Below are positions 30,910-61,859 of a DNA stretch of 64,000 nt, in pieces. A model generated the notes under the pieces. That model was not told the DNA's origin. It was given only the letters and a program-made list of their open reading frames with translations, and ran no database searches. The translations under genes and the position numbers were made by a program. The stretch covers positions 558,001-622,000 of the forward strand of contig JAVKOQ020000002.1 of the NCBI GenBank assembly GCA_031835245.2, in the 5' to 3' direction. The DNA comes from Balamuthia mandrillaris (Eukaryota). Numbering within the stretch: the first letter of the stretch is position 1; each line of letters begins with the position of its first letter.

Positions 30910-32914
30910 ATGATTAGACACTCCACACGGTCTCCATTCGGGTGGATGACCAACATGGTGTTCGTGGGCCGTATGTTTGTGGTGCTGAGCTTGGTGGGCT
31001 CCGTAATGATGTTCTTTGCCATTTGGAACCTCGACTCCCACGAGAGGAGCAACACCCTTGTTGCTGATGTTCAAAAGAGCGAGCTGCAGATGCGTATGTC
31101 ACTCTCCTCTTGCTGCTCTTCTTCTCTCCTGTCACTCCTTCGCTTCGGCACTGGATTGAATGTTCTCTTCTTACTCTCTCCTCATTCCTCTCACCCACTC
31201 TCTTTTCTTCTCGCTCCTCTTTCTTCTCTCTTCTCGTTGCAAATAGGCGATAAGATGGAGGAAATGTTTCACAAGATGGAGGATCTCTCTGCGCAGCTGG
31301 AGACCATCAAAAAGGGCATGACCAACAACTTGTTCCATTACTTCAATGAGAACGAGTGGCCAGATCTATGGGGTACCACGCCCCGGCCCCACTCCTTTGA
31401 CAAAGAGCCCACTGCTGGAAGCACCATTCCGTATTGGTACGTCTCCACCTTCATTTTCAAAGAGCACGCGTTGTGGCTTATTGTTAACGCTCTCGCTTTT
31501 GTTTCACCTTTTCCGTAATAAGGTTGAGAGAGGAGATAAGAAACACGCCAATCGTATATACATTTGTGAATGGTTCCATTCCCGAGTATAGAGAACAGAG
31601 GAAAAAGTATTGCCCCATTTCTCCACCAGAACGTTGCGTTGGTGGTGGCAGAGACAGGTAATTCAGCCTCTCTCTCCTCTCTTATGATCGTTAAACTCAC
31701 TGTTTCATTTATCACAAATCAGAACCAACGACGAATTGCGTTACTCCCTTCGCAGTCTTCAGAAAAACATTCCCTGGCACAAAGGCCATATCTACATCGT
31801 GGCTCCCAAAGACCACCACCCCTATTGGCTCAATGTCTCTCATCCTCGCATCCACATGGTGGATCAGGAGGACCTCTTCCCCGATGATATAAGAGAGCAT
31901 CTTCCGACCTTTAGTTCAACAGCCATCGAACCTCATCTCTGGCGTGCAGTCCCTGAGGGTACTAGGAACTTTATTTACATCAACGACGATTGTTTTATAG
32001 GTCAACCCATGCGTCCTGTTGACTTCTTCACTTCCACTGGCCAGTAAGTCTTTTTCTTACTTCTTTCATTTATTGTATTTTATGTTATTTATTTGTTTAT
32101 TCTTATTATTTGCTTTTGGTCAATCTTTCTCTTGCTTTTTCTGCTAACAACTCATACAAACAGAGGAAACGTATTGTATCTGGAACCGTCAGTAGTGCAC
32201 GCCACCCAAAAGAAATGGGAGGAGTGGAACGAAAAGCATCAAAAGATCTGGTTGGCTGGCGTTTACAAGAGCATCCTTCGCATCAAAGAGCGGTTCCCTG
32301 ATACACCGGGACAACCCACCACGTATCACTTCTTGAAGCATGCGCCATTCGTTATTAACCGAGAAGCTCTTAAGAATATCAGCACGGTATGCACCTCTTC
32401 CTATTTCCTATTTTTTTACTTTAAGGGGCTTCTCTTTTCTGGATTCTCATTCATTGATCCTTTCTGTTTTCGCTCCAATAGATTTGGCATGAAGACTTCA
32501 AGACAACAGCAGCGCATCGGTTCAGGCACACAGACGACGTATTTGCGGTGTGGATGCACACATACTATGTCTACCACACTTTCCCCAAATCTCAATTCAG
32601 AGTGTGGAATGTTGAGGTGAGCTGTTCTTCCCTCCTCTTCTTCCTCAATTTTTATTGTACTTACATCTTTTGCAACAAAACAGAACGGAAAAACAGCAAT
32701 GAAATTGTTTAAAGCGACAGCCAAGGTGGAGGAGTTCCAACAGACGATCGAATGGATACGAGAGAACAAGCCCATCATCTACACCATCAACGACAGCGGC
32801 TACGGCAAGCCCGTCGCGGAGCTCTTCTCTGAATTCATGGAAGCGGAGTTCCCACAGCCCTCCATTTTTGAGCGCCGCGATCAACTGCCAACAACAACTT
32901 CTCCACGTAAATAA
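30910..32914 (+). CDS. Stealth-family hexose-1-phosphoryl transferase, type II membrane protein
   Basis: N-terminal TM, CR1-like PIVYTFVNGS, CR2 NDELRYSLRSLQKNIPW..IYIV..P.WL..PTFSSTAIE..FIYINDD, CR3 HAPF, CR4 TINDS..FPQPSIFE. Confidence 0.9.
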
Positions 32915-43962: not shown

Positions 43963-45554
43963 CTAGCAGAGTTGTACAAAGTTGGAGGGGAAGTAGCCAA
44001 CGACGCCGTTGAGGTCGCCCTGCCACCAACCAGAGGGATCCGTATCATCAAGGATGGTGATGATGTCTCCCTCTCGGAAGGGCAGGTCGGTCGCCGTCTC
44101 CCCGGCATAGTCATAGAGAGCACGACAGGTCTTTGCAGCTTCGGCATATCCTTCTCCTCCTTCGTAGTATCCGCCTTCACCTTCGTAGTAGCCCTCACCC
44201 TCATAACCACCTTCTCCCTCGTAATAACCCTCTCCGTAGCCTTCGCCCTCATAACCGCCTTCTCCCTCGTAATAACCCTCGTCATAACCCTCATCATAGC
44301 CACCCTCGCCATACCCACCTTCATCATAGCCACCTTCATTCCATTGTTGTTCTTGAGCAGGTGGTGCAGCTGGAGCAGGTGCTGGAGCGGGTGCAGGGGG
44401 AGCAGGAGCAGGGGCAGAGGGCTTGTAGGATGGAGCAGGAACAGGAGGAGGAGCCTGCTTGGGAGCAGAGTAAGAAGGAGTGGGAGCCGGGGCAGAGTAA
44501 GAAGGAGCAGGAGCCGGAGCAGGAGCTTGCTTGGGAGCAGAGTAAGAAGGAGTGGGAGCGGGGGCAGAGTAAGAAGGAGCGGGAGCGGGAGCAGAGTAAG
44601 GAGCAGGGGCAGGCGCCGAGCGAGAAGGAGCAGAAGCAGGGGCGGCTGCTCTGGATGGGCGGTATTCGGGCTCCGGGGCAGGTTGTTCCACCTCCCACGG
44701 CTTTGGTTGTGCTGCATCATTATGGTTAAACCAAAGTTAGCGATTTATGAGCACAAGGAATAGAAGCAGGGAGAGAGACGAGAAGGGAGAGAGCAGAGCG
44801 AAGAGAGAAAGAGAGATAAGATAGCAGTCAAAGCAATAAAAATAGACAAGTGCACATACGCGCAGAGCTGAACTTGGAGGCAACGTTGGACACTTTGCCG
44901 GGGGCCTGGGCATCTTGGGCAGGGCTCCATGACTTGAAGGAGGAGTGCGTTTGCTTTATGTTCTGCTCCTCCACGGAGGAAGCAGAACCACGTTGCACGA
45001 CGACTTCTTTGGGGATACCAAACTTTTGCTCTCGTTCTTTGTCGAGCTCATCCCGCAGTTTCTTTTTGGAATCAAATTTTGAAAAAAAAAGAGTAAATAT
45101 TTTGGCTTCGAATAAAGAATAAAGAGAGGAAAAGGAAGAAAGGAGTGGTACCCTTGCGGCGTTGGCTGCGCTGACGATTTCTTCTTTTTTGGTGCCCTCT
45201 TTGATGGTTTCTGCGTTCTAAAAAACATTCCAAAAACCAACAAAAAAAGGTGACGGTTTGTTTTTGTTTTCAATCTTTTGATTCTTCAACAAAAAAAAAA
45301 GAGTGGTCATATACCTCAAAGTCAGGATCGGTGTCCCAATCGTCATCAGCAGCACCCTTTTCAAAAGAGTATATTTTTTAGAAAAAAAAAAGCAATGAAA
45401 CGAAATGGTCACAATAACAAAAATAAAATCAAAGGTGTTACAGCGAATCAATCAATCAACAAAAAAAAAAATCAAGAAATTTAGTCGTTGTCCCCATTAA
45501 AATACAACGTACTTGAGCCCAAGGATCTTCGTCGGGCGCTTTGAACATGGACAT
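43963..45554 (-). CDS. Cortactin/HS1-like protein: acidic DDW motif, Pro- and Tyr/Gly/Glu-rich linker, C-terminal SH3 (5 exons)
   Basis: Spliced MSMFKAPDEDPWAQ|GAADDDWDTDPDFE|NAET..ANAAR|KLRDEL..KFGI..KVSNVASKF..; SH3 ALYDY..DLPFREGDII..GWWQG..GYFPSNFV. Confidence 0.8.
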
Positions 45555-52799: not shown

Positions 52800-54093
52800 G
52801 GTCTCACCTCTACCTCTTCGTGTTTGGTGACAGTGCGACTTATGAATATTATGCGTCCCTGTACCTCATTGCAGCTTTTCGGACATTACCGCCAGGCTTC
52901 TACGAGGGCCAGGCCAAGTGGGCAGACGTCAACCAGGACTCCTTTCCCGACCTCCTCCTTCAGGGCAAGTTGGACCGCACGGCAGTATTAGAAGCTTCCT
53001 TTGGACAGCTTTTGCTGAACGACCAAGGCAGCAACTTCTCCCTCCTGCTCTCCTTTGCTTTCCCTGCTGACCAGCTGCAATGGGGGGATTTCGATGGGGA
53101 CCACTTCTTGGATGTGATTCATCTTCAACATAACGGCCTCGCAGCAGTTCACCTGAATGACGGAAACCAACCCACCACCTTCACTTCTTGGTGCTTGGAG
53201 GCACTACAGATATTGGTGAAATTCGAGCAGCTGATTTCGATGGAGATGGAGATGACGACATGTTGCTCGTATCGGGCTTCTACCGTTTCTTGTATCGCAG
53301 CGACGGGGATGGAAGCTTCGTTGATGCCACAGGAAGTCTCATTGCAGAGAACAGCAGCCCCTTTCACCCCGTTACTGACAGTAGTGCGGACTGGGGAGAT
53401 GTGAATGGTGACCAACATTTGGATTTTGTGGTTTGCGGAAAGGGGACTGTTTCTCCATGGTCAGCAGTGTTCTTGCAAACAAGCGGAGGACAGTTCAGGG
53501 ATGCCACTGAAGAGCTCTTTCTCGCAGATCCCTTGCCCCAAGTCACATCTTGTTTTGTTCGATTTGTGGACTTTGATGGAGATGCACACTTGGACCTCTG
53601 CATCACTGGCGCAGGAGGTGGGGGTTTATTTCGCAACAACGGCTCTGCCTTTGAAGGTTTGTTGTTTGTTTTGTTCAACGTTGGATAGTTGTGAAGTGTT
53701 GACGTGGGTTTCTTTCTTCTTTGTTGGACGCAGACGTGACTAGAAGGGAGTTTGGATTGCTTAGACCCTTCGGAGGCATCGACGACGGGATGGACGTCTC
53801 CTCCACTTCCGCTGGCAACGAATGGACGTTTCGCTTGGGCGGACGTAGATGGCAACGGCTCGCCCGACTTTTCTGCCCTCTCCGCAAATGGCTTCCAGTT
53901 GTGGCGGAACGAGCATTTGTTCCCCAGCGACCATGGCAGTGCATCCTCCTCAGACGAACCGTCCCCCTCCTCCTCACCTAATTCGGAGAGCAGTAGCGCC
54001 TCAAGTGACGGCCGAGATGACGATGGGGATAGCAGCGGTGGTCGTGTGAGGTTGGCCGTATGGTGGATGGAATTGGTGGAACGGCCGTTTTAA
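52800..54093 (+). pseudogene. FG-GAP/VCBS repeat protein, frameshifted, no clear start
   Basis: WADVNQDSFPDL, WGDFDGDHFLDV, AADFDGDGDDDM, WGDVNGDQHLDF, VDFDGDAHLDL, WADVDGNGSPDF; frame changes near 53185 and 53755. Confidence 0.7.
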
Positions 54094-57484: not shown

Positions 57485-60400
57485 TTAGGAGGTCTGCATA
57501 TAACCAGCCACTCTGTAATTCATGAAAGAGGGGCGTTAGAAGATACAAGGGAGGTGGCGCAGAGAAGGAAGAAGGAGTGCTTACTGGTTTTGTCGCTGAG
57601 TGGAATCAATAGCCTCCTTTTTCAAAGTTCGATAATAGTTGTCAAGACTTTCACTAAGTTCTTCAGCAGTTGGTCTAAACAATAAACATAACGATAAGTG
57701 TTGTCCACATTTTGAACAAAAAGTTATACAAAGAAACACAAGGAACAAACCGAAGTTTTGGATCCGATTGCCAGCACCGTTCCAACAGGTCTTTTATTAC
57801 CTCATCTTCGTTCTCTTTGATGGGCAAACGCTCGCCTATTTCATTGAAAATAAATGCACTGTATTTAGCACCACCAAAGACCCCGAAGTGAGGTCAGGTC
57901 TCACCTTCGTAAAGAACTTTGTTAACGACGTAATTGACGTCTTTGCCTTCCCATGGCTGTTGTCTTGTGCAAAGTTCCCATAAAAATACACCAAACGAAA
58001 AGCTGTCTGTTTCTTTGCTGTATTTCTGGTCCTTAAATGCTTCTGGTGCCATCCACTATAAAATTTTTTCATGTTGTTAGTTTTGCAGGAGGGGAGAGAA
58101 AGAAATCGAGAGAGAGCGAAACAATGGAGACAAAAGAAAACAATAATAATTACCCTAACAGCGCCAACATTGCTTTTGGTGATTTGGTACATTTTCTCCA
58201 ACACACGCGACATGCCAAAGTCTCCTAAAACTGCTCTGAAATTGTGACACACCAACACGTTCCTTGCTGCTATGTCTGTTCGTCCATTCCGTTTCACCAT
58301 TGTGAGAATAAAAGAATCTGAAAAGCAAGGAAAGGAAAGGGTAAGAAGTTTTCTAACCCCGATGAACCACGTTCAGTGAATGAAGATAACGAAGGCCTCT
58401 GGCAGCATTACGAGCAATCTTGACAATGGCTAGCCATGAAACATCATCTTGCTTTTTGTTTGGGTTAATCAACAGGTCATAGGCCGACCCGTGCTCAGCC
58501 CATTCTGTGACGAGACACATGCGTTTGCCTTTGCGCATCACTCCATACAATGTTGTACAGTAATTCTCTTTGCCTCCCAATTCGCTGGTCGAAGGGACAA
58601 CAAAGAAAGAAATAGAAAGAAAAACAAGAAGAACAAAGACAGGAGGTCAGTAAGCATTTTTAAAAAAAGTTTAACAAGACGTACTGCATTATTTCTGCTT
58701 CTCGAATGAATTCGTCACGAAGTTGTTGATCCACGACAATAGCGCTGCATACCTTCACTGCACAGTCCTTTCCTTTCCACTTGCCTTTGTACACAACTCC
58801 GAAAGCTCCACTAGCAACTGGTTCTTTGACGTATTCCACATCCTTTCTTCGTAGCCTTGGAACTGGTCCATCATAATAATCTTCTTCCTGTTCTTCTTCA
58901 TCATCATTTTCGTCATCTTCGTTGTTGCGATTTGTTGACTGTAGATATATTCCTTCTTCCACATCTTTGTCGTTCTTTTTCAGGTTCTGCTTTCTTTTGT
59001 TGCGCCTGACAATAAAGAAAGCTGCAGCACCGATCAAAAGAAGGAGCAATAAGACCACGGTGAGAGAAACGACTACTGGAATCACAACTGTATTATCATT
59101 TGACTCTGAATCTTCCCTACCAGCTGCTGAAGAAGAGGAAGAAGAGGAAGAAGAAGAATCAACGTTGACAACTGTAAGGACAGCCTCCAAGAACTTGCGA
59201 TTCCTTTGCAGTGATGCTTCTATCCTTATTGGAAGTTGTTTCTTCGTCTTGTCGTTGCTGTTGGTGTTGCTGGTTGGTGAGATTACTTCAACGACAACAG
59301 TTTCGATGGGACAATCAGAAGTCAGGTTCACGCTCTGTCGATCTTCAAAGATGAGAGGGAGTGCTGCTTCGGGTGGTGGAATGTCTTCTAAGTTCGAGAA
59401 ATCGAGCTGCAGAATACCTATGTCCCTCGAAGTAAGCAAAACAAAATTTTGTTTTCAACCAAATAGATATACTAAAGAAAACGAAAAGAAAAGTAAGCGA
59501 TCCAGCAAACATACCATGCAACGAAGCACATCCTTCCACATATAAGAAAGCCTCTGAGCGAACAATAGTCGACCCGACCACAAATTCTATCCTTCCACCC
59601 TCGGTCAAGTTCACTGATCCTTGCACCGCAACTCCTGTTTCTCCTTCTATTCTCCAAACCTCATCCTCCTCAATGGTAACGCTAGAATAAAGCAGCCATC
59701 TCTCCACCACACATCTCCCTCCTCTCTCCAACACGAAAGCAAGGAATTCGGCACTGCCGTGTCCATCATCGCATTCTCCGCTTGTGTGTAAGTTGCTCGC
59801 AAAGACAACAACCGCACCAGGTGAAGGTCCCGTTTGATCGATGATACCGGTAGGGCCAGGATAACCGTTTGTGACGCCATAAGTATCGCCACTGTCGAAA
59901 GGAGCTCCAGCTGCGATGATGCCTCCATGATAGGCCACAGATTGCCCCATATAAGCAGGATTATTTACGCTATTTGATGCTTTCATCAAAGCCACGTACT
60001 CCCAATCTGCACCCTCTTCCCGTTGATAAAGATAAGCGCCACCAGTGTTCTCATCGACCAAGCACACTTCTTCAAAGGTTACTCCTGGTTGAGTGGTTCC
60101 TTCGGAAGGAGCTCCGCATATGATGACATCGTCTTGCAGTGCCACCGCTCCGCAAAATCTGACGTCACAGTCTGTCGTAGCATTAGTCGACAGTTGTTCA
60201 GTGCGCCACTCTTGCGTTGCCCCTCTGACAAATATCCATGCGAGTTCGTTGGCAGTGCTGTATTCGTGAACGCCGGTCGTTACTACGGCAGTATTGTTGC
60301 TCAAAGCCACTTTATAGCCAAACGGTCTGTCAGCGCATGATCGAGGCTTCAAAAAGGCTTCTTGTCGCCATTCCACTTCGTTCGTTTCGCCTTGCTTTTG

Positions 60401-61528
60401 TCGGACAAAGATGTAAGCAGCTCCGCAGTTGCGCGAAGTATTTGAGACTAAGTCTGGATCTGCGTAAAGAGGGCCTTGGATCGGGTGCTCGAGAGCGGGA
60501 GAATCCTCACCTGTTGCTCCAACAATGATGGTGTCGCCATCAGCAGCCACTGAAATGCCGAAAGAATCCCCTTCATCTCCATACTCTGGTTTGAGAATAG
60601 CTTCCATTCGCCATCTGCCCGCTTCATCTTCATCATCTCTTCGAAAGACAACGACTGCTCCAGAAGAGGGAGAAGAAGAGGAAGAGGAAAGCTGTTCGAG
60701 GTACTGTTGTGAGGTGAAGTAACCTTGAAGAGTCGAATTCTCACCAGGCATGCCCACGACAAGCGTCCTTCCTGAATCCGCCGTGGCCACAGCATAACCA
60801 AACTTTCCATTGGGAACAGCCATGGGAGGGCCTAAAAACGCTTCTTGCCTCCACCTATCTGTCTTATCGTCTCGAACAAAGACGTAAACGCTGCCATAGT
60901 TCCTATCTTCTTCATCAAAAGGTGGGTAAGGAAAGAATGAACCATCGTCCGTTGTTTCGTTGAAGGCATGTCCAAGGTCCACTCCTTCGATCCCAAGCTC
61001 ATGAAAAGGGGTGGACACCACCACCATGTCCGCGTTCGCCACGCTCACGCTCCATCCAAACCGGTCTTTCCGCCCGACCTGGTGCGCTTTCAGGATGGCC
61101 TCTTGTCTCCACTTGCCCCAAAGGGTCCTCCGGAACAGCCAAACGGCACCTGCTTCCTCCGCTCCAAACGAGTCAAACCAGGAGCCTGCAGCCGGATACC
61201 CTTCGCCGTGGTACACTCCGGTAACGTTGCTGGCCTCCGCGACGGCGCTCACAGCCAGCAAGCCGTCCCGCAGTGAGAGGGATTCGTAGCCAAAGTCCAA
61301 GTAGATTGTCGCGCCCCCGAGCGTGTTTTCCAGGTAAAAGTTGGAAACCTTGAGCAGGGCCTCTTGTTGGAGAAATGGTTCTTGGGGCTCTTGTCGCTGT
61401 TGTGGTCGTGGGACGGAGTAGGCGGAGGACGCGTGCAGCACAAGGAAAGACAGGAGACAGAGGAGAGAGAGCCAACTGGAGGAGAAGCCGGAAGAAGAGA
61501 GAAAACGGTGGAAACACGTAGCGGACAT
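57485..61528 (-). CDS. Receptor kinase: signal peptide, FG-GAP beta-propeller ectodomain, TM, Tyr-kinase/TKL domain (last exon approximate)
   Basis: Repeats W.QEA.LK..D.FG.SV..GA. TM VVIPVVVSLTVVLLLLLLIGAAAFFIV-RRNKRK. Kinase ASGAFGVVYKG, AVK, HR|DIAARNVLV, DFGMSR, VR|WMAPE, DSFSFGVFLWE. Confidence 0.9.
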
Positions 61529-61859
61529 GCTGTTGTTTGAATAACGAGGCTCTGCGTATGGTTTGTTGCAGCGAGCAGGGGGCGCTGAGGGTAATGAAAT
61601 GATTCATTAGCGAAACGAAATGAATAGCTTGCTCCATAATACAAATCGGAAAACGTGTCTGCTACGCGCATCTTCCTCCACTCCCGTCGCCACTCCCCCT
61701 GCGTTCTCTCCAAAATGGGAGTTTTTTTCTTAACTTAAGCCCAAGATCCAAACTTTCAAACCATCAATCCGCAATCAAAGCCAGAGATCAGAATGTCCAC
61801 AAAAAGTCCTTTTTCATGTCGTCCTGAACGCAGGAGGACACACAAAAACGAAGAAAGAA

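Follow-up and report, generated by a model that had tools for sequence, protein, structure and literature searches.

The locus described here raises the question of whether an amoeba possesses a relative of cortactin and, if so, which part of the protein carries the kinship. It lies in Balamuthia mandrillaris, an amoebozoan of the Discosea, within a stretch of 64,000 nucleotides that was analysed as a whole and is called the window below (contig JAVKOQ020000002.1, positions 558,001 to 622,000). An earlier note had proposed a repeat-less cortactin/HS1 homologue at this place, in a lineage where cortactin is not usually described. The latter statement agrees with surveys, accessible in part, that put the origin of cortactin in Holozoa (PMC3748353, PMC4824007) or the protein in Metazoa (PMC554100). 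No amoebozoan cortactin-like protein was found in the literature searched, whose scope leaves out most subscription journals, and none is named in the accessible parts of PMC8305917, PMC11673790 and PMC2651865.

Gene structure, expression and protein layout

Five exons on the minus strand (45554-43963; Table 1) splice to an ORF of 366 amino acids, in which all the peptides quoted earlier are present; introns 1-4 measure 156, 97, 90 and 148 nt and are all GT..AG. The spliced product is identical to an NCBI protein of B. mandrillaris, P0001 (366 aa), which was found with the last exon as the query and matches at 100% over residues 1-120. Contigs of run X1, RNA by our guess, skip all four introns and those of X4 two of the four; runs X2 and X3 skip none, their pieces spanning no joint, and a contig of X5, a run of unrecorded sample kind, runs on through every intron. 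The joints of introns 4, 3, 2 and 1 are crossed by 3, 8, 8 and 7 raw RNA-seq reads in X7 and by 5, 1, 11 and 10 in X8, so that every joint, including those of exon 45356-45315, is supported in both runs; X9 has just four reads at the locus and none at any joint (X7-X9 come from one study, X1 from another). RNA reads thus join the four short exons to the SH3 exon, as had been predicted, which disposes of the possibility that the two are not spliced together; the five-exon gene is real and expressed.

Table 1. Features of the Balamuthia gene in window coordinates (aa, residues of P0001)
Feature	Position	Strand	Remarks
Exon 1	45513..45554	-	42 nt, aa 1-14; includes DPW motif
DPW motif	45527-45519	-	aa 10-12, in exon 1
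Exon 2	45315..45356	-	42 nt, aa 15-28
Cortactin-type inverted acidic motif D19-E28, predicted Arp3-binding site	45315..45344	-	8/10 identical to cortactin D20-V29
Intron 2	45218..45314	-	97 nt, phase 0; codon and phase as in an intron of cortactin genes
Exon 3	45152..45217	-	66 nt, aa 29-50
Predicted helix, candidate counterpart of cortactin NtA helix	45020..45172	-	aa 44-64, split by intron 3; AlphaFold2 pLDDT ~56-68
Exon 4	44860..45061	-	202 nt, aa 51-118; rest of predicted helix, KFG (aa 63-65), linker
Conserved Trp motif, family-specific	44912..44935	-	aa 93-100; W in 6/7 family members
Degenerate SFM-like segment (short F-actin-binding motif)	44867..44893	-	V107..F114; P1 and P8 fit, P4 and P9 off
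Exon 5 including stop codon	43963..44711	-	749 nt
Pro/Ala-rich tract	44356..44709	-	aa 119-236, exon 5; 36% Pro
Tyr/Glu/Gly-rich acidic tract	44137..44355	-	aa 237-309; 16 Tyr, net charge -23
C-terminal SH3, kind seen in amoebal Abp1-like and LIM proteins	43966..44136	-	aa 310-366

Upstream, a same-strand ORF of 227 aa (46484-45801, minus) has a Pro/Tyr-rich N-terminal half, a Lys/Gly-rich segment and no Pfam match, and stops 247 nt short of the ATG of the gene. Just downstream lie two tandem Ras-family GTPase genes (42466-41629 and 41448-40321, both minus) and a PHF5-like gene (40047-39583, minus), and elsewhere in the window a Stealth CR2 domain and proteins with FG-GAP repeats are encoded (31688-32044, plus; 59348-61603, minus; 53161-53685, plus).

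P0011 and P0012 are full length, resemble P0001 in layout and are 52% and 49% identical to it; two further relatives, L094 and L033, were found among metagenome loci. A search of 1.84 billion representatives yielded seven matches at E≤0.001, P0001 itself included, and brought in the more distant P0018, P0021 and P0022. Two of its matches were set aside, P0019 because it is the L033 gene read through its intron, and P0020 because it is an unrelated repeat protein. A word search with residues 1-120 recovered just P0001 among 114 candidates, and no named orthologue from Acanthamoeba or Dictyostelium was found among the cluster representatives searched, which as representatives only do not speak for absence. 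Across the seven rows of the family alignment no change occurs in D, W, TDPDF or N and the region of the predicted helix is conserved, while DPW occurs in four members (and in L033) and is absent from three.

The Pro-rich tract, Tyr-rich tract and terminal SH3 described earlier are all present in the protein, whose residues 1-30 are acidic (net charge -9) and whose AlphaFold2 model (pTM 0.23) is confident in the SH3 alone. Searches based on the cortactin repeats miss P0001, which bears the NCBI name 'VM domain-containing protein' and in which Pfam recognises SH3 families only (residues 313-366, E≤10); at that threshold there was no match to the cortactin repeat (HS1_rep, PF02218). Pfam gave neither a WH2 nor a C region in P0001, whose acidic motif is N-terminal, unlike the C-terminal WH2-C-A of class I NPFs (WASP/SCAR), and no ADF-H domain (PF00241) in P0001, P0011 or P0012. 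ESM Atlas, queried with residues 1-120 of P0001 and 1-70 of P0022, returned no usable feature match, all structure rows having TM ≤0.34 by query.

The Arp3-binding-type motif and the intron behind it

The N-terminal motif matches the sole ten residues of cortactin, D20-V29, that were resolved on Arp3 by cryo-EM, where they lie in inverted polarity (PMC10613254, accessible in part). W21 of P0001 is the counterpart of cortactin W22, all five acidic positions stay acidic, and the Asn that comes next is kept as N29 in exon 3. According to the accessible part of the same paper, the only one in the literature searched that has the motif string, cortactin fragment 1-33 binds Arp2/3 as well as fragment 1-76 does (KD 2.2-5.4 uM), without co-activation, so the motif is enough for binding in cortactin. 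Residues 1-120 of P0001 had three matches at E≤10 among 177,635 PDB sequences, with the cortactin NtA in second place (E 0.24, likewise borderline); a profile of the seven family members, run against the same sequences, had three matches with cortactin at ranks 1 and 2 (E 0.043 and 0.052, borderline), the alignment covering the motif only.

The back-translated motif pattern was matched three times in 596 Gb of prokaryote DNA, each time in the same homologous stretch, which reads in a 40-codon frame; measured against this control the motif is far beyond chance. In metagenomes it occurred at at least 115 loci, and 104 of the 115 listed have an in-frame Met no more than 35 residues upstream. As these loci were picked by the motif, its identity in them holds by construction, and evidence can come from their remaining features alone. 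By rule they were binned into 85 cortactin-like loci, two orthologues of the Balamuthia gene and 28 others, with several cortactin-like fragments missed by the rule and left among the 28. No Arp3 sequence was found in the viral contigs or in the motif loci.

Intron 2 of the Balamuthia gene falls directly after the tenth residue of the motif, and a GT stands at the same place in 31 of the 115 listed loci. These collapse to 23 distinct upstream sequences, namely the orthologue L033 and 22 cortactin-type loci, some of which are close relatives of one another; the next exon was found in L033 (after an intron of 79 nt) and in 11 of the 22, and many other genomic cortactin loci are without the intron. 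Judged by density (four introns in 1101 nt; three in the first 200), the odds of an intron on a given site are about 1 in 275 to 1 in 65, before any bias towards AG|GT, the context in which intron 2 sits and which could favour parallel gain. The shared position favours descent over convergence and does not prove it. In human cortactin the DDW site lies in exon 3 (PMC554100, accessible in part). Intron 4, near the SFM-like segment, was considered as a second intron shared with the cortactin locus L016 and left uncounted, the two sites being three codons apart.

The earlier note had allowed for an N-terminal similarity that would not exceed a generic acidic-Trp motif. The PDB ranks and the shared intron make the similarity much more than that; with the motif removed it is not significant. 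This lack would agree with convergence, or with a motif that binds some other target and only incidentally resembles cortactin. An endocytic coat would be one such target, given that DPW is an AP-2 ear motif. For short linear motifs an origin de novo is possible, as the accessible part of the literature says of the SFM. This reading is very improbable in our estimate: the match extends over 11 residues with the same intron behind it, at a chance rate near zero, and it is DPW that is missing from three of the seven members, while the Arp3-type motif is invariant. The motif was instead likely inherited as a module from a common ancestor with cortactin, and to judge from these comparisons the predicted grip on Arp3 probably predates by far the animals and their nearest kin.

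The motif also heads proteins of other kinds. It lies three to five residues from the start of fimbrin-type proteins with EF-hands and three to four CH domains (L064:291-2519, minus; L046:2482-4476, plus; L066:44-1882, plus), in which it may tether a bundler to Arp2/3; L052 and L098 are listed with these fimbrin/plastin-type proteins. A two-LIM protein (L030:2130-3539, minus), with which L065 and L067 are listed, starts with a variant of it. Further motif-headed proteins are encoded by L017, L018, L020, L027, L036, L040, L062, L071, L076 and L095, several of which keep E-x-x-R after the motif as cortactin does; L017, L018, L020 and L040 were scanned and have no Pfam match. In L030 and in several of the proteins without a Pfam match the motif likewise stands three to five residues from the start. 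The fimbrin, LIM and no-Pfam loci have 53-69% GC, those of the fimbrin type 53-68%. Since it heads proteins other than cortactin, the motif alone is no proof of whole-gene orthology.

Comparison with cortactin and with Abp1-like proteins of amoebae

Like cortactin and HS1 (CTTN, HCLS1; PDB 8TAH, 8P94), P0001 has the N-terminal inverted acidic motif (8/10 and the following Asn), the post-motif intron, a predicted helix after the motif, a Pro-rich and Tyr-rich region and a terminal SH3. Unlike them it is without the 37-aa repeats, the MWK start, the long charged helix and the QRWG segment conserved behind the motif in cortactins; its SH3 is distant from theirs, and it is amoebozoan, whereas the surveys cited above, as far as accessible, confine cortactin to Holozoa. 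For a quantitative comparison 17 cortactin ORFs with repeats were reduced to 15 by dropping two near-identical ones. Once the motif was removed, profile-profile scores against these 15 were equalled by 16/150 and 54/400 column shuffles (P ~0.1, not significant). With a PSSM of the helix, P was 0.026 for P0001, lay in the range 0.17-0.26 in three orthologues and came to 0.046 when the family was scored as a profile, a post hoc and marginal result. The repeat PSSM gave P0001 a score of -18.6, the cortactins having a median of 82 and a minimum of 26.9, which together with the Pfam result bears out the claim that the tandem actin-binding repeats are absent. The further suggestion that KFGI is the vestige of one repeat was rejected as unproven: KFG scores as no repeat and, present in four of the seven aligned members, is absent from three and missing in the distant ones.

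In Balamuthia and in three orthologues the SFM-like segment (residues 107-115) has the V of P1 and the F of P8. It departs from the consensus at P4 (V/A for L) and P9 (S/N for E), the positions that set affinity according to the accessible part of PMC13364712. These two positions, with the repeat score and the motif-removed comparisons, weigh against the reading of the gene as a cortactin orthologue over its whole length, which would have split off before the repeats expanded, or would have lost them, and would act as a full branch stabiliser with linker motifs in place of the repeats. For such orthology speak the shared intron, the order of the parts (motif, helix, SFM-like segment, Pro-rich, Tyr-rich, SH3) and the spacing from Trp to helix, 30-31 against 31-37 in the 15 cortactins. 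Locus L016 could moreover stand as an intermediate form; it encodes a cortactin with small introns, the same post-motif intron, an SFM, a charged helix, a Tyr/acidic tract before a cortactin-type SH3 and a single repeat, so the number of repeats can fall to one. L093 and L096 were grouped with L016 as one-repeat cortactins, a minimal or ancestral-like form.

The C-terminal half bears on the same question. The SH3 of P0001 is 62-73% identical to the SH3s of ADF-H (Abp1-like) and LIM proteins and only 36-44% identical to eight cortactin SH3s; for P0022 the corresponding values are 52-60% for the others and 36-50% for cortactins. The named ones among these ADF-H and LIM proteins come from the amoebozoans Armaparvus and Pellita, and the SH3 of the P0001 relatives suggests that these, too, are amoebae. 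A tree of 19 rows and 57 columns, drawn without P0009, SH3-less cortactin ORFs, animal DBNL and myosin-I, has the cortactins on a long branch of their own (97/92); their union with the Balamuthia family is rejected, if marginally, by the AU test (p=0.046), and the SH3s of the family mix with those of ADF-H and LIM proteins and form no resolved clade. No cortactin chain appeared among the best 60 of 348 PDB matches to the SH3. The SH3, taken in the earlier note for a cortactin feature, thus falls outside the cortactin type in both identity and phylogeny and keeps ADF-H/LIM company.

The Tyr-rich tract fared no better as a cortactin mark. A Tyr/acidic tract also precedes the SH3 in P0002, P0003, P0004 and P0008 (6-14 Tyr in 76 residues) and occurs there in ADF-H, LIM and IMD proteins; being common to these, it is no cortactin signature, and its distribution suggests a lineage-wide feature. 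P0003 (a LIM-like fragment with an SH3) and P0008 (IMD with an SH3) are amoebal proteins of other families with the same tract.

The Abp1/drebrin-like (DBNL) proteins of amoebae (P0002, P0004-P0007) resemble P0001 in an SH3 that is 62-70% identical and in a Pro-rich and Tyr/acidic tract ahead of it, and one of them, P0007, also has an SFM-like segment. They begin with an ADF-H domain and are without the inverted acidic motif, P0001 being the reverse. Abp1 and cortactin have been described as a parallel pair of Arp2/3 ligands, each binding F-actin and having a terminal SH3 (PMC2196464, accessible in part), and such parallel layouts fit a swap of modules between the two. As the Abp1-like proteins have the same C-terminal half and the SH3 groups with ADF-H/LIM proteins, we regard whole-gene orthology as unlikely. 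What stands of the proposed repeat-less homologue is the Arp3-type motif, the intron and the lack of repeats; the remainder of the sequence is not significantly similar and the SH3 is not of the cortactin type.

Predicted function and reach of the module

On the best reading P0001 combines an Abp1-type tail with an ancient module that binds Arp3, and is likely a tether or a weak stabiliser of branches; it is no established orthologue of cortactin. It has cortactin's motif and is without the actin-binding repeats, so it would likely tether Arp2/3 to partner proteins; it has neither the repeats nor an SH3 of cortactin type and likely works like cortactin's N-terminal domain. We hold it fairly probable that the protein, with the motif at one end and the SH3 at the other, keeps hold of Arp2/3 at Arp3 and brings it to partners of the SH3 and of its proline motifs. 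W21 would enter the Arp3 pocket with cortactin's inverted polarity, and the predicted helix would rest against active Arp3 in the manner of cortactin I55-T76, a contact that might to a modest degree stabilise branches or co-activate alongside WASP/SCAR. The SH3 and Pro tract would recruit the partners. Any F-actin binding would be weak and would go through the conserved linker motifs, and P0001 on its own should not activate Arp2/3. The accessible parts of PMC10613254 and PMC11102864 report that cortactin NtA alone neither binds F-actin nor activates Arp2/3, that it partly protects branches and that it synergises with WCA, which is why we predict that P0001 tethers and that any stabilising or co-activating effect would be modest. 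Co-activation in particular may not take place, since QRWG is missing in P0001 and cortactin 1-33 does not co-activate.

Arpin and the WASP family's A domain also use an acidic-Trp motif to occupy the same pocket of Arp3 (PMC10613254, accessible in part); theirs lies at the C-terminus and runs the other way when bound. A protein that occupied this site without binding F-actin could, like Arpin, damp WASP/SCAR-driven branching. The site is common to Arpin, NPFs and cortactin, P0001 has no repeats, and in the accessible part of the cortactin work fragment 1-33 binds without co-activation and fragment 1-76 at high concentration lowers polymerisation with monomeric WCA. We nevertheless consider such a competitor improbable, given that a helix of about cortactin's length (21 residues against 22) is predicted after the motif, in a region conserved in the family, and that fimbrin combines the motif with domains that bind F-actin.

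Beyond Balamuthia, where the tether remains our preferred reading, we suggest tentatively, at slightly less than even confidence, that the inverted acidic motif of cortactin is an ancient and mobile module for binding Arp3, which arose before Amoebozoa and Opisthokonta parted and may even go back to the last eukaryotic ancestor. Separate lineages would have joined it to actin tools of their own, namely repeats (cortactin), a tail of Abp1 type (amoebae) and fimbrin or LIM domains (other eukaryotes), so that class II branch stabilisers would be pan-eukaryotic, a class so far unrecognised. If the amoebal family truly has cortactin's motif and intron, the module dates back at least to the common ancestor of amoebozoans and opisthokonts. 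P0001 is also a natural repeat-less construct, bearing on the question, raised in the accessible parts of PMC10613254 and PMC11102864, of how much stabilisation and co-activation the N-terminal domain gives alone.
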